Shown here piece by piece: positions 2,384-41,163 of a DNA stretch of 48,332 bases. A program made the translations under genes and the position numbers. The notes below the pieces were generated by a model that was given only the letters and a program-made list of their open reading frames with translations, was not told where the DNA came from and ran no database searches. The DNA lies in contig CAYQCH010000003.1 of NCBI GenBank assembly GCA_964415935.1, positions 1 to 48,332 on the forward strand. Reading direction: 5' to 3'. Every line of letters begins with the position of its first letter. Position 1 is the first letter of the stretch. The stretch is from an uncultured Gammaproteobacteria bacterium. Its GTDB lineage: Bacteria > Patescibacteriota > Patescibacteriia > VMEV01 > CAYQCH01.

Positions 2384-3535
2384 TTAGGCGGTTATGCGCT
2401 CGTTAAGCTCGGCCACGGCCTGCCATTCATCCCAGGACAGTTGCGACGCGCCGCCGCCACCCAGCATCTCTTGCATGGGCTTGCTGTCTTCCAGGCTTTG
2501 CTTGGCAGCCAGCAAATAGGCCTTCATGACATCGGAACTGCGCCAGGCCTGAATGCCTCGCAGGCGCTGGGCATAGCCATCCTGTTCCAATAAATCCAGG
2601 TTCGCTTCGATTTTCTTCACGCGATCCGCCGGATTGGGCGCCAACCTGCGCCAGGTGGCCAGGTCATAGGCCAGCTCATCGACCGGACCGCCAATCGGAC
2701 GGCTCGGCTTTTGGATGTCGGACAGCATGGGACGCGGCGCGGCCGCTGACGGAAGGGAGAATGCCTGTTTGGAAGCCTGCGGGCTGATGGGAAAATACGG
2801 CACATCTGCGGCAGCGGCTTTGTCGAGCGCGACTTTGGCCGGCATGCCGATCTCTTTGCCTACTGGCGCCATGGTGGACGTCATGGGCTTGGAGATGGGA
2901 TTTTCCGGTTTCGTAACAGGCCTGACGCCGTTAGACGGCTGCTCCGGCGCGGTGCCGGCGGCTTGCATGATACCCGCAACGTCCTGTTCGCTCAGGCCGG
3001 CGCCGCCGTCGCGAATATCCTTCATGAGGTTTTGTCGCGTCTCAAACGGCTTGCGCACCTGCTTAAGATGCGCCACCAGAGCCTTGGCCACGCGGCCGCG
3101 CACTTCCCCGCTGGCGAAGGTTATGCCGCTTTTGTTGATGATGACATCAGCTTTGGCCAGCAATTCCTGGTCAGCCATGCCGCGGACAGGCGGAGTGGAA
3201 GGCTGAGGCGCCGGTTGTGGCGGCTGCGGACGGCTTATTACCGGCTGAGCGGATTGTGCGGCGGGTTTCGCAGGGACAGCCGGCGTCGAAGGCATAGATG
3301 GCGCAGCAGGACGCCCGGGAGCCGCAGGCGCGCTCGCCATGGCGCGAGGTTGCATCGGCTGCGAGGCTGGCTTGGCATCCGGAGCGCGCTTTGGACCGAC
3401 ATCGCCAGCGGACGGTGCGTCTTTAACCTCATCCAGCGGCACAAACTTCCCTTCTCTCAAAATCTTATAGGTACCATCCTGGTCGCGGATGATGATGTCG
3501 TTATCCTGATGCTTATGTTTGTTTTCGTCTGCCAT
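2384..3535 (-). CDS. hypothetical protein with a long Pro/Ala-rich low-complexity centre, in the T4SS-like operon
   Basis: 383-aa ORF. Its stop is 1 nt from the PrgI-like start. It has structured N- and C-terminal regions and no recognisable catalytic motif. Confidence 0.55.
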   Translation of the reverse strand: MADENKHKHQDNDIIIRDQDGTYKILREGKFVPLDEVKDAPSAGDVGPKRAPDAKPASQPMQPRAMASAPAAPGRPAAPSMPSTPAVPAKPAAQSAQPVISRPQPPQPAPQPSTPPVRGMADQELLAKADVIINKSGITFASGEVRGRVAKALVAHLKQVRKPFETRQNLMKDIRDGGAGLSEQDVAGIMQAAGTAPEQPSNGVRPVTKPENPISKPMTSTMAPVGKEIGMPAKVALDKAAAADVPYFPISPQASKQAFSLPSAAAPRPMLSDIQKPSRPIGGPVDELAYDLATWRRLAPNPADRVKKIEANLDLLEQDGYAQRLRGIQAWRSSDVMKAYLLAAKQSLEDSKPMQEMLGGGGASQLSWDEWQAVAELNERITA

Positions 3536-23190: not shown

Positions 23191-23240
23191 TAAAAAGTGA
23201 ACACCCCCGACAGAACCGTGAAAGTTCCGTCGGGGGTGTT
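23191..23240 (-). terminator. intrinsic terminator downstream of the 407-aa high-GC3 gene
   Basis: 12-nt perfect arms AACACCCCCGAC (23200..23211) / GTCGGGGGTGTT (23229..23240), extended by GAAC/GTTC. The minus strand continues CACUUUUUA. Confidence 0.65.
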
Positions 23241-23352
23241 GTGTGGAGCACCATGCCGGCAGCGTGGCCGCAGGCATGTTTACTGTTGGTCAGTCAGGCC
23301 ATACTCCATGGCCTGGCGGCTTGCCGTGTGGCGTTGCCGCGAGCGACGCGCG

Positions 23353-24576
23353 CTAGTGCGCGTTGTTGCCGCCCTCGAACGAGCTGGCCGGCGTGCCGAA
23401 GGCCGCGCCGTAGCTCGGGACGCCCGCGCCCACGAGCTGCTCGCTCTGGGGCGCGAACGGGGTCGAGCGGTTCGGCGTGGTGCTGAACGCGCGCTCGAAG
23501 CCCGAGGCCGCCGGCGCCGTCGAGTAGTCGCGGGCCAGGACCTCCTGCAGGTCCGAGGTCGCCGAGGCCAGGGCCGCGCGCTTGGTGCGCAGGTCCTTGA
23601 CCACGTTCTTGTGCCCGTTGGTGTGGGCCACCGCGATGCCGACCGTCGACATGAAGCCGGTCGGGTTGCGACGGCTCATGGCCAGCAGCTCCTCGGTGAA
23701 GGTGAAGCTGCCCGCGCCGTCCGGGTTCTGGAAGAGCTCGTCGGCCTTGCCCCAGCCCGTGCTGATCACGTCGATCAGCTTGCGGGTGGCGATGGCGCCC
23801 GCGTCGTGGCGGATGAACATCGGCGCCGCCGTCGACTGGTCGGAGACCATCGGGCGGGTGGGCATGGTGCCCACGTAGCGGACGTCGTACCCGCCCTGCG
23901 CGTTCGGGTAGAACCCGAGCACGCAGATCGAGGTGGGCGTGGCCATCGGGATGGCCGCCGAGGCGCGCTCCGTCTGGGCCAGCTGGGTCACGTCGTAGCC
24001 GTAGATGGCCACGGCGTACTTGGGCCTCTCGACCTGGGTCTTGGCGAACGCGCAGTTCGCCTTGACCCAGTCACCGCCGTAGATCCAGCCCAGCACCGCG
24101 GTGATGAACCGGGTGTTGGTGGTGCGGCCCTGGTCGTTCCAGGCGCCGTACTTGGTGAACGAGCGCCCGATCTTCACGTTGCGGATGTGCTGCTCGAGGG
24201 CCTTGAGCGTGATCACGCTCTTGCCCGCGAACAGCTCCTCGATCTTGTTCTGGAGCTGGGTCCGGACCTCGTTGATGTTGATCGGCAGGGTGATGCCGAT
24301 CGTGCTCAGGCCCTGGACCAGCATGCCGCTGATCAGGTTCAGCGCCTGCTCGGCGCTGAGGGTCTGGTCGAGGCCGCCCTCGATGCGGTTGAAGTCGACG
24401 ACGACGACGTTCACGTCCTTGCCCGTGTTGGTGGGCATGGGCGCGATGTCGTACTCGACGACGTCGTCGAGCTGGCGCTTGCTCACCGGCAGCATGACCA
24501 CGGTCATGTTGGGCGCGCCCAGCGACGCGGCGATGAGGCTGCGGATCGACGAACGACGGTTGCTCTGGAGACGCAT
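23353..24576 (-). CDS. orphan 407-aa protein with extreme GC3 codon usage; possible twin-arginine-like N-terminus
   Basis: Trimmed from ORF 23353..24882 to ATG 24576, preceded by GAAGGG at 6 nt. The G/C-ending codon bias begins exactly there. The N-terminus MRLQSNRRSSIRSLIAASLGAP resembles a Tat-type signal. No family recognised. Confidence 0.6.
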   Translation of the reverse strand: MRLQSNRRSSIRSLIAASLGAPNMTVVMLPVSKRQLDDVVEYDIAPMPTNTGKDVNVVVVDFNRIEGGLDQTLSAEQALNLISGMLVQGLSTIGITLPININEVRTQLQNKIEELFAGKSVITLKALEQHIRNVKIGRSFTKYGAWNDQGRTTNTRFITAVLGWIYGGDWVKANCAFAKTQVERPKYAVAIYGYDVTQLAQTERASAAIPMATPTSICVLGFYPNAQGGYDVRYVGTMPTRPMVSDQSTAAPMFIRHDAGAIATRKLIDVISTGWGKADELFQNPDGAGSFTFTEELLAMSRRNPTGFMSTVGIAVAHTNGHKNVVKDLRTKRAALASATSDLQEVLARDYSTAPAASGFERAFSTTPNRSTPFAPQSEQLVGAGVPSYGAAFGTPASSFEGGNNAH

Positions 24577-24777
24577 GCGAAACCCTTCTACCCAGGTTCT
24601 CTGTCCACCCCCGCCGAAATGACGGGGTATTGGAACAACCTGGATACTGGCCAGAGTCGGAGTCGAGTGAATGGCCACGATGCCATCCAATTCCCTACCC
24701 CTTCCCCAGTCAATCGACGAGTATAACTGACTGGGTAAGAGGTAGCTGTTTGTAAAGAACTGCCCCCGACTAGTTTC

Positions 24778-24798
24778 TGTCGTCATAATTTGACGACA
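24778..24798. promoter_or_regulatory. operator-like inverted repeat TGTCGTCA-N5-TGACGACA
   Basis: Perfect 8-nt arms with a 5-nt spacer, inside the ~600-nt non-coding region upstream of 23353..24576. It is related to the repeat at 24992..25010. Confidence 0.4.
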
Positions 24799-24970
24799 AT
24801 TTTTTCGAAAATGAAACGAAAAAAAAGAACCGCGAAATGCGATCCAGGAAAAACCATTCGGGACTGACAAGCGAAACCACAACCATTAAAGACAGTCGAC
24901 GTCCTTCAAGTGTTGCTGCTTCGCTTATCAGTACAAAATGGAAAGGGCTATCTGGTAACCGACAAAAGGC

Positions 24971-25010
24971 ATCCTACCAACGTCAAAAAAAGTTGTCAAT
25001 AACTGACAAC
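24971..25010 (-). promoter_or_regulatory. candidate sigma70-type promoter (TTGACA-17-TAGGAT) overlapped by inverted repeat GTTGTCA-N5-TGACAAC
   Basis: On the minus strand the -35 TTGACA is at 24999..24994 and the -10 TAGGAT at 24976..24971. The inverted repeat arms are at 24992..24998 and 25004..25010. Would imply a ~390-nt 5' leader. Confidence 0.35.
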
Positions 25011-25126
25011 AATATTTTCGTATCACTAAGGTTAGCCACATTTTTTGTCATGAAGAAAAAACACCCTGATTTATCAACAGTATCTGTGGATAAATTTTGA
25101 AATTTTTTCGATTATCGTTGTACTAG

Positions 25127-25155
25127 TTGATTATTCGCATGATGGTTGTTATAGT
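25127..25155 (+). promoter_or_regulatory. candidate promoter of tRNA-Cys (TTGATT-17-TATAGT)
   Basis: -35 at 25127..25132 and -10 at 25150..25155, about 40 nt upstream of the tRNA. Confidence 0.45.
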
Positions 25156-25193
25156 TTCTTTACAAAATGCCCTCTTTTGGGGCTATTTTTGAT

Positions 25194-25268
<75 letters not shown>

Positions 25269-26815: not shown

Positions 26816-27616
26816 TTAATTGTCTTTCCCCTGCTCCCAGAGCAAGGCAAAAGACTGTAAATAGGCTTCAGCAATAGTTTTGTTCCGGATCTGGATGATC
26901 ACCGGTTCCTGGCCGTACACCTCGATGGCAACCATTTCCTGCGTGATGCGCGTAAAGGTGGGATTGGAAAGTCCGACGGACAAGAATCGATATTCATTGC
27001 CCGGCTCGGAGGCAAAGTACTTTTTAAAATACTCATTGTTGTTGGTGGGCGCGATGAGGCGCTTAGTCACGCCATGCTGAATCTGTAGTGCGGTATACGT
27101 TTTATACCAGTCGCCCAGCAAGGAATAAAAAACTTTGTCGCTGGCGCCGCCGATGATGCGGATGATTTTGTCGGTGCGTCCTGCGGATTCGATCATGACT
27201 TTGAGGCTTTCGCGCAAACCCTGGCTGCCGGAGAGGATTTGGACATGCACGTCGTCCTGGGACTTCTGGCGCAAACGTTCCAGTTCCGCGATGGCCGTCT
27301 TGGCGATTTCTTCCTGCTGCTTGATCCGGTCCAAAATGACGGACGGGTTGGTGGCCAGCCAGTGCTGGCGGTTGTTCTTCATGATCATGCTGGCCATACT
27401 CATGTCCTTGAGTTTTTCCAGGGACTGGTAGACCAGCATGCGATGCAATTTTGTCTTGGTGACGATGGGGCCGACGCCGGTTAATCCGAGCTGTAAAAGC
27501 GCGATATACACTTGTGCTTCGCGTTCCGGAATGTTGAGCTGTTCCAGCAGTTTCTGCAGCGGCATAGGCGGGATGTCGTCAAAAATGGGCGACACTACTT
27601 TATACGACTTTATCAC
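26816..27616 (-). CDS. TrmB-family transcriptional regulator
   Basis: N-terminal winged-helix LEQLNIPEREAQVYIALLQLGLTGVGPIVTKTKLHRMLVYQSLEKL, characteristic of TrmB. The true start may be the internal ATG at 27565. Confidence 0.65.
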   Translation of the reverse strand: MIKSYKVVSPIFDDIPPMPLQKLLEQLNIPEREAQVYIALLQLGLTGVGPIVTKTKLHRMLVYQSLEKLKDMSMASMIMKNNRQHWLATNPSVILDRIKQQEEIAKTAIAELERLRQKSQDDVHVQILSGSQGLRESLKVMIESAGRTDKIIRIIGGASDKVFYSLLGDWYKTYTALQIQHGVTKRLIAPTNNNEYFKKYFASEPGNEYRFLSVGLSNPTFTRITQEMVAIEVYGQEPVIIQIRNKTIAEAYLQSFALLWEQGKDN

Positions 27617-27638
27617 GGCCTATATTGCCTGGCAAACG

Positions 27639-27666
27639 TGACAAGACGATGATTTTTTGCTATGGT
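27639..27666 (+). promoter_or_regulatory. candidate promoter (TGACAA-16-TATGGT) upstream of the orphaned tRNA-Gly 5' half
   Basis: -35 at 27639..27644 and -10 at 27661..27666, with the -10 ending 11 nt before the tRNA-like sequence starts. No comparable promoter precedes the intact tRNA copy. Confidence 0.4.
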
Positions 27667-27677
27667 GCGATGTGCTT

Positions 27678-27743
27678 GCGGGTGTCGTATAACGGCTATT
27701 ATGTCAGCCCTGCCTGCCGGCAGGCAGGCTTCCAAGCTGAAGA
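27678..27743 (+). pseudogene. orphaned 5' portion (nt 1-46) of tRNA-Gly(UCC), interrupted by a 20-nt palindrome in the anticodon loop
   Basis: 27678..27709 and 27730..27743 are identical to nt 1-32 and 33-46 of the tRNA at 27987..28061. It has no T-arm or 3' acceptor. Confidence 0.8.
27709..27728. repeat. perfect 20-nt palindrome CCTGCCTGCCGGCAGGCAGG (copy 1)
   Basis: Read directly from the sequence. The same core recurs at 29154..29175, and a degenerate copy lies at 41142..41163. Confidence 0.9.
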
Positions 27744-27744
27744 T

Positions 27745-28001
27745 ATGGTTCATGTGTACGTGCTACAAAGCAGAAAGATAAAACGCTATACACAGGCATT
27801 ACAAATGACCTCGATCGGCGGCTTCGAGAGCACGATCACAAATCCAACCGGAGCACGAAACACAAAGCCCCTTTCGCCTTGTTGTACGTCGAGACCCATC
27901 GTTCGCACACAGAAGCTCGGGAGCGTGAAAAGTATCTAAAATCAGGCATCGGCAGACAGCACCTTAAAAAGCTCCAGGAGAAATACGCGGGTGTCGTATA
28001 A
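27745..28001 (+). pseudogene. YhbQ/Slx1-type GIY-YIG nuclease ORF, frameshifted
   Basis: Frame 1 reads MVHVYVLQSRK from ATG 27745. A second frame reads KDKTLYTGITNDLDRRLREH...PFALLYVETHRSHTEAREREKYLKSGIGRQHLK, ending at TAA 27999..28001 inside the tRNA. The two parts need a 1-nt shift in AGAAAGATAAAA (27772..27783). Confidence 0.75.
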
Positions 28002-28061
28002 CGGCTATTATGTCAGCCTTCCAAGCTGAAGACGGGGGTTCGACTCCCCCTACCCGCTCCA
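27987..28061 (+). tRNA. tRNA-Gly (anticodon UCC), CCA encoded
   Basis: Acceptor GCGGGTG/TACCCGC, anticodon stem TCAGC/GCTGA, loop CTTCCAA, T-arm GGGGGTTCGACTCCCCC. Confidence 0.9.
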
Positions 28062-28102
28062 ATCTGATTGCAATTGCTTGGCAAGATCGAAAACTGAATT
28101 GT

Positions 28103-29068
28103 ATGGATAGCACCACACAATCTCTTATTCAAACTTTGATTAATCATCAGTCTAGATTTCAAAAAGCTCAAATAGATGTCTCGCGACATTTTTGCATTAA
28201 ACGTTTAGTAAATTTTCTAAAATCAAATCAACTTCTCTCAAGTATCATTGAGGAATTAAAAGCTAAGGTTGATAACGCTGTTGAAACAGAAAAAGCTGCA
28301 AAGATCTTAGTCTCTGGGCACCTTGGGGCAGATTTTGAAAATGAAAACAATTTTATCCTCCGGTCTTACTTTGTTTTGGAGGCATGCGCAAGCGGGGCAA
28401 GTAGTTCTGTGACCCATGCTGGCCAGGCAGTGAGCAAGGAACCAACTAGTGCAACAACGTGCCAAAGCGCCTTTTCAGACATGTATATAGAGCCGCTTGT
28501 AGCCTACCTCGTGAACGAGCTTCAAAATAATCGGACTGTATTGCTTGCATTAATTCAGTATAAGCAAAAGGTAGAGTGGTTCCGCCGAGAGGAGTTTCGC
28601 AAATCCATCAAAAATTGCAAAAATAAAAGAATTGAGGAGGAAGTATTAAATCCGGACGTTTACGAATTTCTTCATGATCGGGGTATAGAATTTTATATTG
28701 AGCCGTCATCAGAACAATCGAAAGGAAGGCCTGATCTCATTACCGCACAAGGCGACCATCCTAAGTTGATTCTTGATGGCAAATACTTGGACGATACAGA
28801 TACGGCAAAATCATATATTAAAAGTTCTTTTTCACAAGTGTACCAATACACTTATGATTTTAATCGCCCTTCGGGATATATTGTTTTTTTTAAAAACTTC
28901 AAAAGTGACTTAAAGTTTTCACTTCCGACCACAGAGCAGGGACTCCCCATCGTGACGCATAATGGAAAACACATTTATTTTGTTCTGATTGACATTACAG
29001 ATGTGAAATCCCCATCTAAACGCGGGAAAATAAAGGCTATAGATATATCAGAATCTGATTTGAGATAA
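28103..29068 (+). CDS. AT-rich orphan with a C-terminal PD-(D/E)xK nuclease-like motif
   Basis: The ORF was trimmed to ATG 28103, since the track start lies inside the tRNA. It has a helical N-domain, then IEFYIEPSSEQSKGRPDLITAQGDHPKLILDGKY (E...PD...DGK). Its composition is visibly much more AT-rich than the flanks. Confidence 0.55.
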   Translation: MDSTTQSLIQTLINHQSRFQKAQIDVSRHFCIKRLVNFLKSNQLLSSIIEELKAKVDNAVETEKAAKILVSGHLGADFENENNFILRSYFVLEACASGASSSVTHAGQAVSKEPTSATTCQSAFSDMYIEPLVAYLVNELQNNRTVLLALIQYKQKVEWFRREEFRKSIKNCKNKRIEEEVLNPDVYEFLHDRGIEFYIEPSSEQSKGRPDLITAQGDHPKLILDGKYLDDTDTAKSYIKSSFSQVYQYTYDFNRPSGYIVFFKNFKSDLKFSLPTTEQGLPIVTHNGKHIYFVLIDITDVKSPSKRGKIKAIDISESDLR

Positions 29069-29153
29069 GAAAAAACCCCCGCCAGTCAGAGTCAACGTCG
29101 GTAGACGTCTTCTCGTCGTGGCGAGGGTCGCTTGGCTCCCCCAAGCGCAGGTT

Positions 29154-29175
29154 GCCTGCCTGCCGGCAGGCAGGC
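29154..29175. repeat. 22-nt perfect palindrome GCCTGCCTGCCGGCAGGCAGGC (copy 2)
   Basis: Read directly from the sequence. It lies 4 nt downstream (minus-strand sense) of the stop of 29180..29998. A further hairpin CGCTTGG-CTCCC-CCAAGCG is at 29129..29147. Confidence 0.9.
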
Positions 29176-29179
29176 GGCT

Positions 29180-29998
29180 CTAGGCGCCGCCGAAGCCGTC
29201 CGGATCCACCTCGGTGGCGGATGGACGGCGCGGGCGCGCGGCCGGAGCCTCGGGCTCCTCGACCGGACGCGGAGCGCTGGCGGGCAGCGAGCGGTCCGGC
29301 ACGGAAGCCGTGGGCGTCTCCTCCACCGCGGGCGGCGGAGGCGTGGGGTCGGTGTTCATCCTGGTGTGGATGACCCCGTCCTCGCCGGGCGTGGCCACGG
29401 CGGGCTCGGTGGAGCGAGCGCGGCGCGGACGCGGCAGGGACTCCGGCTCCTCGGCGGGCATGGAAGCGCCGCCGCGGAACCAGGCCATGATCTGCCTGTT
29501 GTTGACCGGCACGAGCCTGCCGTTCTCGAACGTGAAGTGCGAGACCAGGTCCAGCTCGGTGTCGACCACCATGCCGGGCTTCTCGATCTGCATGAACAGC
29601 GAGTAGATCAAGCCGTCAGCCCGAGCGGGCCAGACGACGTCACCGGTGGCGCTGTTCACGTTCAGCATGAGCCCGTTCTCCGGGTTGCTGCACACCTGCA
29701 GGGCCTCGTCGACCGTCTTGGGCATGAACTCCAAGACCTTGTCGAATGGGATGATGCAGGCCGCCTGGATGCGCTGCCGCTCCATCGCGGCGAACGTCAC
29801 CAGGTTGCAGCTGCTATCGACCGAGGCGACCACGGTGTAGTCGACCTTGGCGTCGCCGCTGCTGAGCGAACCCCAGTCGTTGGAGATCTCGGTCAGCTCG
29901 GCGCTGTTGAAGTACTGGTTGGGCGACGAGCAGCCGCTGCTGACGAGCAGCAGCACGAACGCCAGGACGACGGCCATGGCCTCAATAAGCGTGTTCAA
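29180..29998 (-). CDS. exported/lipoprotein-like orphan with extreme GC3 and a Pro-rich C-terminal tail
   Basis: TTG start 29998, preceded by GGGGGA; an alternative ATG is at 29977. Hydrophobic leader AVVLAFVLLLVSSGC. Nearly all codons from 29977 onward end in G/C. No family recognised. Confidence 0.6.
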   Translation of the reverse strand: MNTLIEAMAVVLAFVLLLVSSGCSSPNQYFNSAELTEISNDWGSLSSGDAKVDYTVVASVDSSCNLVTFAAMERQRIQAACIIPFDKVLEFMPKTVDEALQVCSNPENGLMLNVNSATGDVVWPARADGLIYSLFMQIEKPGMVVDTELDLVSHFTFENGRLVPVNNRQIMAWFRGGASMPAEEPESLPRPRRARSTEPAVATPGEDGVIHTRMNTDPTPPPPAVEETPTASVPDRSLPASAPRPVEEPEAPAARPRRPSATEVDPDGFGGA

Positions 29999-30062
29999 AC
30001 AATTCCCCCGAATGCAAGATCAGCTCCTGCTTGCTGTTTACGGCTTATTCCGCAAACATTAG

Positions 30063-31081: not shown

Positions 31082-31465
31082 ATGCTGCCTGTTTTATCCA
31101 ACGCTAACCGCGATGAGCTGCAGCGCATCGCGAAGATAAAGGGATATGGCTCGTACAAACGCCATATCTTTTTATGCACCGGCGCGGGCCCCTGCACGGA
31201 CGGGCGCAGTTCCGAACATCTGTGGGAATTCCTCAAACGGCGCATCGCGGAGCTGGAACCTGATCCCGCGCATCCCACGGTCGGGCGCAGCAAGTCGGAA
31301 TGTTTGCGTGTCTGCAAACAAGGCCCGACGGCGCTGGTGTATCCGGAAGGCACGCTCTACGCGCTGCTGGACGAAGCAAAACTGGAGCGTGTCATTAGGG
31401 AGCATCTGTTGGGCGGCAGGCCGGTGGAAGAATACGCCATCATGCACGCTCCCTTGCTCCCCTAG
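31082..31465 (+). CDS. thioredoxin-like [2Fe-2S] ferredoxin domain protein
   Basis: HIFLCTGAGPC and ECLRVCKQGP cysteine pairs, followed by VYPEGTLY, matching the thioredoxin-like 2Fe-2S ferredoxin pattern. Confidence 0.6.
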   Translation: MLPVLSNANRDELQRIAKIKGYGSYKRHIFLCTGAGPCTDGRSSEHLWEFLKRRIAELEPDPAHPTVGRSKSECLRVCKQGPTALVYPEGTLYALLDEAKLERVIREHLLGGRPVEEYAIMHAPLLP

Positions 31466-31505
31466 GAACGGTACGCTACCATGGGGAGCGCAAAACGCGC
31501 ACTGA

Positions 31506-31576
31506 GCGGGATTCGTATAGTGGCAGTACGTCAGCTTCCCAAGCTGAACGCGCCGGTTCGATTCCGGTATCCCGCT
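31506..31576 (+). tRNA. tRNA-Gly (anticodon CCC), CCA not encoded
   Basis: Acceptor GCGGGAT/ATCCCGC, anticodon stem TCAGC/GCTGA, loop TTCCCAA, T-arm GCCGGTTCGATTCCGGT. Confidence 0.85.
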
Positions 31577-31627
31577 CCGTGGGCGTTTTTTTATGTCCAA
31601 ATGTCGGCGGCGTTTGACAATCCACCG

Positions 31628-31657
31628 TTGACATTTTGGAAATTTTCTGCGTATAGT
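31628..31657 (+). promoter_or_regulatory. near-consensus promoter for 31703..32356 (TTGACA-18-TATAGT)
   Basis: -35 at 31628..31633 and -10 at 31652..31657. A GGAAAGGG SD-like sequence lies before ATG 31703. Confidence 0.5.
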
Positions 31658-31702
31658 TGTTGCCACAGCTCCTCCACCAACGAGATACGGAAAGGGCCTC
31701 CC

Positions 31703-32356
31703 ATGCGGCGAATCTACGCCTTGCTCCCCGCCGTGGCGCTGTGCCTCGGCTGCTCCGCCTACAGCAACTTCAACCAGCCGGGCATGTTCCCCGAGGATCC
31801 GGAGATCCTCATGGCCGACGACCTGCAGTGGTCGGCGGACGATCTGGCCGAGTTCGGCCTGGACCGCAACGCCGTGAAGGGCAAGCCCTTCCTGCCGCCG
31901 GTCGACAACCGCCGCGACATGCGGTACTCCTTCCTGCGCCACGTCATCTCCGGCACCCGTCCGGACGGGCTGCCCAACCTGGTCGCCCCCGACGGCTACA
32001 ACCTGATGGTCTGGAAGGAGCGGCCCAGCGACGAGTTGACCGGCTGGATGCAGGTCTTCGCCTACCCCGCCGACTGGCAGCAGCGCGCGCGGCGCGGCCT
32101 GCACAGCCGCGACATCGGCTGGGCCTTCATCCGCCGCACGCATGACCTGCGGGGCTGGGAGAACGTCTCGCACGACTACCCCACCCGAACCTGGCGCCAC
32201 CCCACTCCGGCCGAGGAAGAGGTGCGCGGCGGACAGCCGACGATCTGGCACAGCCCGCGCCCGGTGCTGTGGCAGACCACCCCGTCGCCAAGCGCGGCTC
32301 CGGCGGCGGTGGCCTCAAGCCGCGTGGCCTGCCACTGCGGCCAGGTCCACCACTAG
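31703..32356 (+). CDS. exported/lipoprotein-like orphan with extreme GC3
   Basis: Trimmed to ATG 31703, since the track ORF starts upstream of the tRNA and runs through it. Leader MRRIYALLPAVALCLGCS. Almost every codon ends in G/C. No family recognised. Confidence 0.6.
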   Translation: MRRIYALLPAVALCLGCSAYSNFNQPGMFPEDPEILMADDLQWSADDLAEFGLDRNAVKGKPFLPPVDNRRDMRYSFLRHVISGTRPDGLPNLVAPDGYNLMVWKERPSDELTGWMQVFAYPADWQQRARRGLHSRDIGWAFIRRTHDLRGWENVSHDYPTRTWRHPTPAEEEVRGGQPTIWHSPRPVLWQTTPSPSAAPAAVASSRVACHCGQVHH

Positions 32357-32380
32357 GCGCCGCCCGGGCGCCATCAAGAA

Positions 32381-32422
32381 AACCGGCCTTTGTCTGACGA
32401 CGAGGGCCGGTTCTTCTTTTTT
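32381..32422 (+). terminator. intrinsic terminator after 31703..32356
   Basis: AACCGGCC (32381..32388) / GGCCGGTT (32405..32412), followed by CTTCTTTTTT. Confidence 0.6.
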
Positions 32423-32431
32423 ATAACAAAT

Positions 32432-33592
32432 TTAATGGCTGTGGACATGGCCGCCGCCGGGCGCAGGCGGATGTGCTTCGCGGCCAAACACGCGCGCGGC
32501 GATGTAGGTGGTAATGGGAACAGCAAGGATGAGCGCGGCGCTGCCGGACAACGTGCGCACAATTTCTTCCACCAAAAACTCGCTGTTGAAAATGATCCAG
32601 AGCGGAAAGTCGGTCTTGGTGAAAATAAGCAGCACCGGCAGGCTGGCGCCTACATACGCCAAAGCCAGCGTGTTGACCAGCGAGGCGATGTGCTCGCGGC
32701 CCACGGACAATCCGCGGTTGTACAGCTCATGCACGGGCAGCGCCGGGTTAGCGCGATGGATTTCATCAACCGTGGCCGCCTGCGCCGTGGTGATGTCGTC
32801 CAGCACGCCCAATGAACCGATGATGATGCCGCCCAGGTACAGGCCGCGCAAATTGATGTTCTGCAGCGGGCCTTGCAGCAAGGAAATGGAATCTTCCGAG
32901 CCCATACCGAAAATTTTGACGAACGACACCATGAGAATGGACAAAGCCGCCGAAAGAAACAAAGTAATGGCCGTTCCGGCCAGGGCCACGGTCGTGCGCT
33001 TTTGAAACCCATGCGCCAGGTATAGGGAAATAACCAAAATCATGACGCCGGAAACGAGACTGACCCACACCGGATTGCTGCCCGCTTCAATGCGCGGGAT
33101 CATGAATTCCACGATGATAATGAGGCTGAATGCCAGGCCGATCACGGAGGAAAGGCCTTTCCAGCGCCCAAACGAAATGGCCAGCAGAAAAAACGCGGCA
33201 AACAGCCAGAGCACGGCAGGCAGTCGGTACTTTTCTGCCACATAAAACTCTTCCTCGCCGTTGCGCGTAACTTTTACCACGACAACGCGCTCCCCTTCTT
33301 TTAACTTCTCCCGCTGCTCGTGATTGACCGGCAGCTGGAAGTCATGGGTAAACACTTCACCGCGGTCAGGCCCCTCGCTGATTTCCACGCGCACGGTCTG
33401 GTACGGCTGGCGGAATCCCTCAATATCCAGTTCCGTGTCAGCAAGGATTTGCACGACTTTACCGCGGTAGTATTCGTTTTTGACTTCCAGCGGCGGCAAC
33501 GGCGCTTCCCCCTGGGCTCGGCCAGGAATGGGAATGCACAACGCCGCGATAAAAATGATCGTGGAAACGAGCCGCTTCATAAGCCGCTGCAC
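32432..33592 (-). CDS. YibE/F-like integral membrane protein
   Basis: 386 aa. N-terminal TM plus a soluble beta-rich domain, then about 6 TM helices. The architecture is recalled from the YibE/F family. It overlaps the upstream gene by 16 nt. Confidence 0.55.
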   Translation of the reverse strand: MQRLMKRLVSTIIFIAALCIPIPGRAQGEAPLPPLEVKNEYYRGKVVQILADTELDIEGFRQPYQTVRVEISEGPDRGEVFTHDFQLPVNHEQREKLKEGERVVVVKVTRNGEEEFYVAEKYRLPAVLWLFAAFFLLAISFGRWKGLSSVIGLAFSLIIIVEFMIPRIEAGSNPVWVSLVSGVMILVISLYLAHGFQKRTTVALAGTAITLFLSAALSILMVSFVKIFGMGSEDSISLLQGPLQNINLRGLYLGGIIIGSLGVLDDITTAQAATVDEIHRANPALPVHELYNRGLSVGREHIASLVNTLALAYVGASLPVLLIFTKTDFPLWIIFNSEFLVEEIVRTLSGSAALILAVPITTYIAARVFGREAHPPAPGGGHVHSH

Positions 33593-41141: not shown

Positions 41142-41163
41142 GCCTGCCTGTCGGCAGACAGGT
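41142..41163. repeat. degenerate copy of the GCCTGCCTGCCGGCAGGCAGGC palindrome
   Basis: GCCTGCCTGTCGGCAGACAGGT has 3 substitutions relative to the 29154 copy. It lies 1 nt after the rplS stop and 60 nt before tRNA-Leu. Confidence 0.6.

Follow-up and report, generated by a model that had tools for sequence, protein, structure and literature searches.

A GIY-YIG cassette nested in a tRNA-Gly(UCC) gene, together with a palindrome conserved across phyla, points to an apparently undescribed mobile element

Nuclease genes of the GIY-YIG superfamily have been described in the vicinity of tRNA genes, and SegB of phage T4, a free-standing GIY-YIG homing endonuclease gene, sits in the T4 tRNA gene cluster (PMC2330249). 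In a survey of the superfamily published in 2006, the stand-alone Slx1-like proteins of prokaryotes were viewed as repair proteins that are inherited vertically, and a linkage to tRNA genes was not mentioned (PMC1564403). In this study, we analyzed a stretch of 48,332 nucleotides (nt), referred to here as the window, which comprises positions 1 to 48,332 of contig CAYQCH010000003.1 of assembly GCA_964415935.1, deposited as an uncultured Gammaproteobacteria bacterium and placed by GTDB in the Patescibacteriota. The window contains a unit in which a small open reading frame (ORF) of the Slx1-like branch lies between two direct copies of a tRNA-Gly(UCC) gene, one intact and the other truncated and split by a 20-nt palindrome, PAL. 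We consider it probable that this locus is a small selfish GIY-YIG cassette, guided to its target by tRNA homology and expressed from the tRNA promoter.

Several described systems resemble this arrangement in part. The Seg genes of T4-like phages are, like the cassette, intron-less GIY-YIG genes among tRNA genes that are present in some relatives and absent from others, and they are expected to spread when a break is repaired and the flanks are co-converted. However, Seg proteins have ~200 to 250 amino acids (aa) and a separate DNA-binding domain, whereas the cassette ORF encodes a bare catalytic domain of ~80 aa from the Slx1/UPF0213 branch. In addition, Seg genes have no flanking partial duplicate of the target and no known conserved palindrome, and the hosts of the cassette are cellular genomes of many phyla. 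The module with which free-standing homing endonucleases bind a long specific target is absent from the cassette protein, and the ribozyme core of a tRNA group I intron carrying a homing endonuclease gene was not found at the window locus. Another parallel comes from the atp6 gene of Allomyces, where a mobile GIY-YIG ORF reportedly brings along a replacement gene piece and the resident piece becomes a pseudogene, as Paquin, Laforest and Lang are said to have described in 1994. In both cases an ORF with a fresh segment would restore the gene and orphan a fragment, and both pieces can be of the donor type. The atp6 target is the 3' end of a protein gene in an organelle and the enzyme a large homing endonuclease with DNA-binding modules, whereas the cassette has bacterial tRNA targets, a 5' or 3' orphan, an ORF that serves as tRNA leader, and PAL. 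REP/RAYT systems (REPtrons) combine many dispersed short GC-rich palindromes with one or a few small nuclease genes flanked by the palindrome, and PAL is likewise dispersed and lies 15 to 60 nt upstream of most of the ORFs. Nevertheless, RAYT is an IS200-like Y1 (HUH) transposase and the cassette enzyme a GIY-YIG protein, REPs are species specific whereas PAL is identical across phyla, and REPtrons involve no tRNA duplication. Integrase-dependent islands and prophages also rebuild their tRNA landing site with an element-borne part and leave a partial direct repeat, but these elements depend on a recombinase of the tyrosine or serine type, extend over kilobases, and bring the 3' part of the tRNA with them, whereas the unit in the window measures 309 bp, lacks a recombinase, and duplicates the 5' part. 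Finally, the UPF0213 proteins (BH0048 [1zg2], EF2693 [1ywl], and YhbQ of E. coli) belong to the same family as the cassette protein by sequence (expectation value [E] 1e-14) and fold and are also minimal stand-alone domains; they are regarded as housekeeping repair factors, and tRNA nesting, a palindrome, or mobility is not reported for them in the searchable literature.

The features of the locus are listed in Table 1. A first-pass annotation of the stretch had stated that tRNA nt 1 to 46 occur verbatim upstream of the intact gene, and a repeat search bears this out, with an exact 32-nt repeat (27678-27709 = 27987-28018) and a second block (27725-27743 versus 28014-28032) that is exact over tRNA nt 32/33 to 46. 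Since tRNA nt 32 is ambiguous with the first C of PAL, the copy can equally be read as nt 1 to 32 (27678-27709) plus nt 33 to 46 (27730-27743). The 20-nt gap between the two parts, on which that annotation had not commented, is the palindrome and an integral part of the unit. The upstream copy is not among the six tRNAs that ARAGORN calls in the window and gave no tRNA match in an Rfam search of 27300-28400 with E up to 10, in line with the earlier view that it is not a functional tRNA; the same search found no intron, leaving the downstream tRNA uninterrupted, and no known RNA at PAL or at the tRNA fragment. The GIY-YIG ORF lies between the copies as described, and its last 15 nt, including the TAA at 27999-28001 (tRNA nt 13 to 15), are tRNA nt 1 to 15. 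A consensus scan of the locus detected a sole promoter-like site, the GTGACA-17-TATGGT site upstream of the fragment, which the first-pass annotation had given as TGACAA-16-TATGGT. Between this promoter and the tRNA we found no terminator-like site with a convincing T-run, and the fold of the leader RNA is no more stable than those of shuffled sequences (z = -1.24). The unit contains the GIY-YIG ORF as its sole gene and, as first supposed, no integrase or other recombinase. The duplicated part, tRNA nt 1 to 46, is placed upstream, and no direct repeat of the tRNA 3' part occurs at the far end. The occupied allele keeps a complete, unaltered tRNA, with the change confined to the region upstream of tRNA nt 1 and the second copy broken by PAL. 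Chance or an artefact was considered as an explanation of the locus and is ruled out by the exact 32- and 15-nt repeats, the independent assemblies, and the existence of mutated PAL variants.

Table 1. Positions of the cassette and of PAL copies in the window
Feature	Coordinates	Strand	Basis
Promoter-like site: GTGACA, spacer of 17 nt, TATGGT; the -10 element is preceded by TG	27638..27666	+	Consensus scan
Truncated tRNA-Gly(UCC) copy, part 1 (tRNA nt 1-31)	27678..27708	+	Exact repeat
PAL CCTGCCTGCCGGCAGGCAGG within the truncated copy, at the anticodon stem/loop junction	27709..27728	.	Inverted repeat, 10+10
Truncated tRNA copy, part 2 (tRNA nt 32-46)	27729..27743	+	Exact match to 28018-28032
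UPF0213/Slx1-like GIY-YIG ORF	27745..28001	+	PF01541; intact 99%-identical copy P0001 in L001
Intact tRNA-Gly(UCC), CCA encoded	27987..28061	+	ARAGORN; Rfam tRNA, 60.3 bits, E 2.5e-12
Stand-alone exact PAL, intergenic	29155..29174	.	Motif match; in L001, not at the L117 site
Stand-alone degenerate PAL CCTGCCTGTCGGCAGACAGG, 2 mismatches	41143..41162	.	Motif match

The conserved site is occupied in one relative of the window and empty in four others. Over 9.9 kb, contig L001 shares 99.6% identity with the window, and it carries the same cassette; between 27600 and 28061 the sole difference is one extra G in L001. Homologues of the neighboring TrmB-like gene mark the organism as a member of a Patescibacteria lineage. 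They were also used to rank further relatives, in which the identity of this gene to that of the window is 91% in L117, 84% in L118 and L119, and 72% in L120. The TrmB gene and tRNA-Gly(UCC) are divergent neighbors in all four, as in the window, and the locus is free of GIY-YIG matches, PAL, and tRNA fragments in each of them. In an alignment the promoter regions of L117 and the window correspond, the L117 tRNA stands where the window has the fragment, and the promoter motif is found directly 5' of tRNA-Gly(UCC) in both L117 and L118. Judged by this shared TrmB-promoter-tRNA order, L117 to L120 are empty sites of the kind that the first-pass annotation had proposed to look for, and therefore the 309-bp unit is, as suggested there, an insertion in the lineage of the window and L001. 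The same annotation had named the 46-nt duplication in ORF-less relatives as an observation that would speak against it, and the ORF-less L117 to L120 lack the fragment as well. A comparison of the window and L117 tRNAs refines the picture, as their 11 differences all fall between nt 19 and 47, with none in nt 1 to 18 or nt 48 to 76. Ten of these (nt 19 to 44) lie in the duplicated block and the eleventh (nt 47) just outside it; the window fragment has the window-type base at all ten that it covers, and the L120 tRNA is also of the window type. If the common ancestor of the window and L117 had the variant of L117 and L118, the nt 19 to 46 block would have arrived with the cassette in both copies, and the homology arms would be tRNA nt 1 to 18 and nt 47 to 76. 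The initial proposal that a fresh copy restored the gene and orphaned the old 5' half stands as regards the insertion, while the "old" half may not be old and, given the ten shared differences from L117, may be of the donor type.

The 85-aa product of the repaired window ORF matches Pfam GIY-YIG PF01541 (E 5.6e-17, 62.3 bits, with a cut-off of 22.6), and the family profile matches BH0048 (1zg2, 1.1e-14) and EF2693 (1ywl, 1.8e-14), followed by SLX1. Residues Y5, Y16, R26, H30, and E62 are invariant across an alignment of 36 homologues. An AlphaFold model (predicted local distance difference test score 88.4) has a single domain with the beta-beta-alpha-beta-alpha-alpha GIY-YIG fold, for which Foldseek ranks 1zg2 first, then the Slx1 nuclease domain (template modeling score 0.62 to 0.67), with I-TevI lower. 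Sequence and model together assign the ORF to the UPF0213/Slx1-like branch of the GIY-YIG superfamily. Neither Pfam nor the model indicates a second or DNA-binding domain in the 85-aa protein, and no specific NCBIfam, PADLOC, or PHROGs family covers the ORF. In the window, the frame is broken at 27771/27772, between Y5 and Y16. The first reading had placed a 1-nt shift in an A-rich run (27772..27783); the 1-nt break is confirmed, but by comparison with L001 it is a missing G at 27772 (AGC GAG AAA has become AGC AGA AAG) and not a homopolymer slip. The homologous P0001 in L001 is 99% identical to the repaired protein and has an intact frame, and the window copy of the nuclease would be either newly dead or mis-sequenced. 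A half-PAL encoded in the GIGR(E/Q) motif of the ORF (GGCAGACAG in the window) was also considered and dismissed, as matches across 85 ORFs are no better than chance. The gene called in L001 (9536-9889) has 117 aa, with its ATG in the promoter-proximal leader and its frame running through the tRNA fragment and PAL, and its homologues start at the internal Met that corresponds to window position 27745; the intact 85-aa protein is represented by residues 33-117 of P0001. Database proteins of this family may often carry spurious N-terminal extensions derived from tRNA fragments.

The arrangement is not peculiar to the window. A scan of genome collections with the homologue alignment found at least 578 relatives, and 80 loci were fetched for analysis. 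In 53 of these 80 the first nucleotide of a tRNA on the same strand is found -29 to +42 nt from the stop of the ORF. The tRNAs concerned are Gly-UCC, Phe, Asn, and Met together with several for Leu and several for Arg, and nearly all 53 loci have a partial copy of the same tRNA within 250 nt upstream of the ORF, with local alignment scores of 12 to 51 against a shuffled maximum of 9 to 13. The possibility, raised at the outset, that other family members lack an association with tRNAs is thereby answered. The truncated copy always matches the neighboring tRNA, and the part of it that precedes PAL has a mean identity of 98.5% to its own tRNA, compared with 73% to tRNAs with the same anticodon at other loci. 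About 10 further loci (such as L030, L071, L007, L038, L054, and L057) have the mirror layout, in which an intact tRNA is followed by the ORF and a 5'-truncated tRNA copy, and L004 has five tandem units of an ORF and a pseudo-tRNA-Glu. On these sequences the rule is an ORF between two direct tRNA copies, one intact and one disrupted. Insertion at tRNA position 46/47, which the first-pass annotation had taken from the window, is not a fixed property, given that the end of the disrupted copy varies between ~nt 23 and 77 by locus and that the mirror layout exists. Together, the architecture and its mirror image involve seven tRNA types (Gly, Leu, Arg, Phe, Asn, Met, and Glu) in many phyla. A clustering of the 85 ORFs groups them by the type of tRNA, over Bacteroidota, Patescibacteria, Nitrospirota, Planctomycetota, and further phyla, and the mean identity is 0.61 within a type as against 0.51 between types. 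A single Leu cluster has members from Bacteroidota, Patescibacteria, Nitrospirota, Planctomycetota, and Ignavibacteria as well as from a betaproteobacterium. ORF lineages thus track the tRNA type and not the host phylum, which argues for horizontal spread to the same target in unrelated hosts, as expected of homing. Many of the loci lie at contig ends, which is expected of repeats. Culturable carriers of a cassette include Algoriphagus kandeliae, Lutimonas halocynthiae, Namhaeicola litoreus, and Aureibaculum. Two further candidates were set aside: recent multi-copy spread within one genome, because P0062 occupies a single place in many assemblies and L035 and L042 represent a larger duplicated segment and not independent insertions; and the 97.6% identity of L019 and L056 across supposed phyla, which is probably a binning problem of short contigs and was not used.

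PAL is the most conserved part of the whole unit. It is a perfect 10+10 palindrome (CCTGCCTGCC/GGCAGGCAGG, 100% complementary), and in 43 cases the gap in the tRNA fragment is exactly 20 nt and filled by CCTGCCTGCCGGCAGGCAGG, identical or nearly so. This identity holds over all tRNA types and phyla, though the ORFs are only ~45 to 60% identical. Of 81 loci, 37 have an exact PAL, which with few exceptions lies within the disrupted tRNA copy and 15 to 60 nt from the ATG, typically 15 to 25 nt upstream of it; other loci have degenerate, shortened (12 to 16 nt), expanded (24 to 62 nt), nested, or doubled versions. The point of insertion is always near a stem/loop junction of the cloverleaf, at nt 14/15 in most Leu cassettes, nt 21 to 23 in those of Arg-ACG, Arg-CCU, and Arg-UCU, nt 32 in most of those of Arg-UCG, and nt 31/32 in the window and L005. 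Among the stand-alone copies of the window, the degenerate one at 41143 follows the rplS stop by 2 nt and precedes tRNA-Leu(GAG) by 60 nt. PAL is rarer in long ORFs than random positions are (33% versus 69%). An adapter or assembly artefact was rejected as the source of PAL, which is found in isolate genomes and metagenome-assembled genomes (MAGs) from many studies, at lineage-specific positions, and in point-mutated, shortened, and expanded variants.

These observations bear on a simpler view in which an ordinary repair or defense gene was trapped between tandem tRNA duplicates, one of them decaying, and moves as a passive passenger by general homologous recombination or transformation. Such a view would agree with the treatment of stand-alone Slx1-like proteins as vertically inherited repair factors (PMC1564403), with the lack of a recognizable transposase, integrase, or DNA-binding domain in the cassette, and with the single-copy state of many family members, such as the copy in L121. 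We nevertheless regard it as unlikely, as it does not account for the same precise architecture at seven tRNA types in many phyla, the clustering of ORFs by tRNA type across phyla, a site that is polymorphic between close relatives, or a 20-nt cis element that stays invariant next to such divergent ORFs. Tandem arrays of up to five ORF-pseudo-tRNA units and the repeat-like position of many copies at contig ends also argue against it.

We propose a model in which the selfish cassette is made up of a truncated target tRNA copy, split by the 20-bp PAL conserved across phyla, a minimal GIY-YIG nuclease gene of ~80 aa without an extra DNA-binding domain, and an intact tRNA copy whose start abuts or overlaps the end of the ORF. 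The cassette would have no promoter of its own, and the native tRNA promoter would drive the fragment, the ORF, and the tRNA. Because the small genome has a single tRNA-Gly(UCC) and the cassette separates it from the native promoter, this tRNA would come from a read-through transcript with the ORF as its leader, from which RNase P cleavage at +1 would free it. As the stop codon lies inside the tRNA, RNase P processing would leave an ORF message without a stop codon, a possible brake on the level of the nuclease. The cassette may spread between cognate tRNA genes by recombination, with the conserved 5' and 3' tRNA sequences as homology arms. This could occur by homing-like gap repair, in which a break in an empty cognate tRNA gene is repaired from an occupied one, or through a circle of ~300 bp that is excised by recombination between the copies and re-integrates in the Campbell manner. 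A single crossover to the left of PAL would yield the layout seen in the window and one to the right of PAL the mirror layout, and selection would remove products that have PAL in the only full-length copy. The nuclease is predicted to stimulate spread by cleavage, either at PAL or at a sequence or structure within the target. PAL itself could be the cis binding or cleavage site of the nuclease or, like a REP to its RAYT, a hairpin that the nuclease disseminates; either way, it would interrupt a homology between the tRNA copies that could otherwise delete the cassette. A hypothetical structure-specific, Slx1-like action of the enzyme fits better than classical homing.

Several points weigh against this model. 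All of its mechanistic claims are drawn from the architecture, and the nuclease activity, the target site, and transfer are predictions. The occupied allele keeps an intact tRNA, and a nuclease that recognized nothing but the tRNA gene would cut its own allele, unlike in classical homing. A protein of 80 aa that has no additional domain is poorly suited to the recognition of a long specific sequence. The perfect identity between fragment and tRNA could reflect gene conversion and not recent mobility, and the polarity of the tRNA variants (whether type A was imported or not) depends on a ranking of relatives by the similarity of a single protein. Furthermore, 34 of the 35 viral-contig stretches with PAL and 81 of 85 metagenomic PALs have no GIY-YIG gene nearby; with PAL mostly away from GIY-YIG genes, its link to the nuclease is therefore one-sided.

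The abundance of PAL away from the cassette brings up a different possibility, which we hold more tentatively, in which the palindrome is the primary mobile entity of a REP/RAYT-like system and the GIY-YIG protein, as a structure-specific enzyme, inserts it at the stem/loop junctions of DNA hairpins, in which tRNA genes are rich. The position next to a tRNA would then mainly borrow a promoter, and the disrupted tRNA copy would be the nearest tolerant hairpin-rich target. PAL does behave as a dispersed repeat, with three matches in the 48-kb window against 0.02 expected and further copies in 35 viral and at least 120 metagenomic stretches. The window has three copies and L001 has two, whereas the four empty-site loci have none, and compared with the orthologous site in L117 the PAL at 29155 amounts to a clean insertion of 20 nt, with no duplication of the target. 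In favor of this possibility are also the clustering of insertion points at stem/loop junctions (nt 7 to 9, 12 to 15, 20 to 23, 31/32, and 44 to 46), fragments with two PALs or with nested or expanded ones, the closeness of the fold to the structure-specific nuclease Slx1, and a second ORF clade bracketed by a different, equally conserved inverted repeat. On its own, however, it leaves the tRNA duplication and the lineages of ORFs by tRNA type unexplained; the position of PAL is heritable in ORF lineages (in Leu cassettes it is nt 14/15 with few exceptions), which speaks against repeated insertion in separate events, and REPs are not shared across phyla in the way that PAL is. A PAL-centered system is compatible with much of the data and does not exclude the model of a tRNA-guided selfish cassette. 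It is also conceivable, at a probability well short of even, that the Slx1-like GIY-YIG protein and CCTGCCTGCCGGCAGGCAGG form an unrecognized multi-phylum mobile system, in which the nuclease inserts or copies the 20-bp hairpin at stem/loop junctions and propagates its own promoter-less gene between tRNA copies with no transposase, integrase, or DNA-binding domain, and whose sister clade has the palindrome TCCCGTTAGAG...CTCTAACGGGA bracketing the ORF.

The 3' side of the tRNA has a history of its own. In the window, a 1,005-bp insert of low GC content (~40%) at 28062-29066 directly follows the tRNA CCA and contains one ORF of 321 aa, for which no Pfam or PADLOC match was found. At the same point L001 (9950-16708) has a 6.76-kb island that encodes a tyrosine integrase and a DUF2326 protein and includes another copy of tRNA-Gly(UCC), whose T-stem looks like a hybrid of two variants. 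Because the inserts after the tRNA differ, the 3' side is a separate island hotspot. The tRNA piece could accordingly be supposed to be the attachment-site remnant of an integrase island and the GIY-YIG gene its left-over cargo, a notion to which these islands lend some plausibility. We consider it very improbable, since the cassette is on the upstream side of the tRNA and the islands on the downstream side, it is the 5' and not the 3' part that is duplicated, the window and L001 have the same cassette next to different islands, and no integrase occurs near more than 50 other cassettes.

Our literature search on GIY-YIG proteins in connection with tRNA genes, palindromes, Patescibacteria, COG2827, and UPF0213 returned only the work on phage Seg genes and fungal mitochondria, and PAL was not found in the searchable literature; the search was not complete. 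GIY-YIG genes near tRNAs (T4 SegB), replacement of a gene segment along with an ORF (fungal mitochondria), and REP/RAYT pairs are already known, and our analyses point to a widespread mobile element that appears to be undescribed, with a substantial chance that the GIY-YIG/PAL pair is categorically new. Taken with its more than 60 analogues, the locus suggests that much of the UPF0213/YhbQ family is a selfish cassette inside tRNA genes, one that can parasitize an essential single-copy gene harmlessly by rebuilding the gene and using its promoter. If so, the UPF0213/YhbQ family would gain a testable function, many tRNA pseudo-fragments and assembly breaks beside tRNA genes in Bacteroidota and Patescibacteria would be accounted for, and a 20-bp palindrome conserved across phyla would call for a protein partner. 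The cassette could also offer a very small tRNA-guided insertion module of ~300 bp.

Other observations concern stand-alone PALs and relatives of the cassette. Many stand-alone PALs (metagenomic loci L122-L201 and viral loci L082-L116) lie in AT-rich intergenic DNA between imperfect copies of the same 7- to 14-nt motif, for example in L090 (14 nt, exact), L084, L100, L148, L161, and L167, and a few are at the center of larger inverted repeats (L138, L102, and L104). No clear target consensus emerged among their flanks. Target-site duplication or inverted-repeat flanks as a general feature of these PALs were discarded, given that direct repeats of at least 6 nt flank 3.8% of them against 0.4% of controls, a weak excess, and that the sole orthologous empty site has no duplication. 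In two putative phage contigs from IMG/VR (L106, 2239-2330, and L083, 8570-8650), the variable loop of a tRNA-Met-like gene contains PAL; apart from this, the tRNA looks complete in L106, where ARAGORN calls a 92-nt tRNA, and the T-arm is partly deleted in L083. In the Lewinellaceae MAG L004 (1540-4300), five GIY-YIG ORFs alternate with tRNA-Glu pseudo-copies whose anticodon loop (after nt 30) holds 2 to 8 tandem copies of a different 26-nt hairpin unit, CGTCTCCTTCGGAGCCGGGTAAACCA, and every unit ends in the same terminator hairpin. A distinct clade of the same small GIY-YIG proteins (L017, L026, L037, L039, L047, L050, L058, L059, L060, L064, and L070, with the ORF at ~3001-3260 in most) has neither a tRNA copy nor PAL and is bracketed by another conserved inverted repeat, in the order (ATGAA)TCCCGTTAGAGA, ~10 nt, ATG...ORF...TCTAACGGG(ATGAA), with the stop codon inside the right arm. 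An ORF-less version of this hairpin also lies downstream in L059, and the hosts of the clade include Patescibacteria, Proteobacteria, Desulfobacterota, Planctomycetota, and a Woesearchaeota MAG. Lastly, the GC content of the window is uneven, with patches of 68 to 71% (23250-24500, 29000-30000, and 31750-32500), stretches of 39 to 44% (24750-25250 and 28000-29000), and 50 to 55% elsewhere; the long ORFs of the high-GC patches (23197-24726, 29180-29998 on the minus strand, and 31172-32251 on the minus strand) have no Pfam match.

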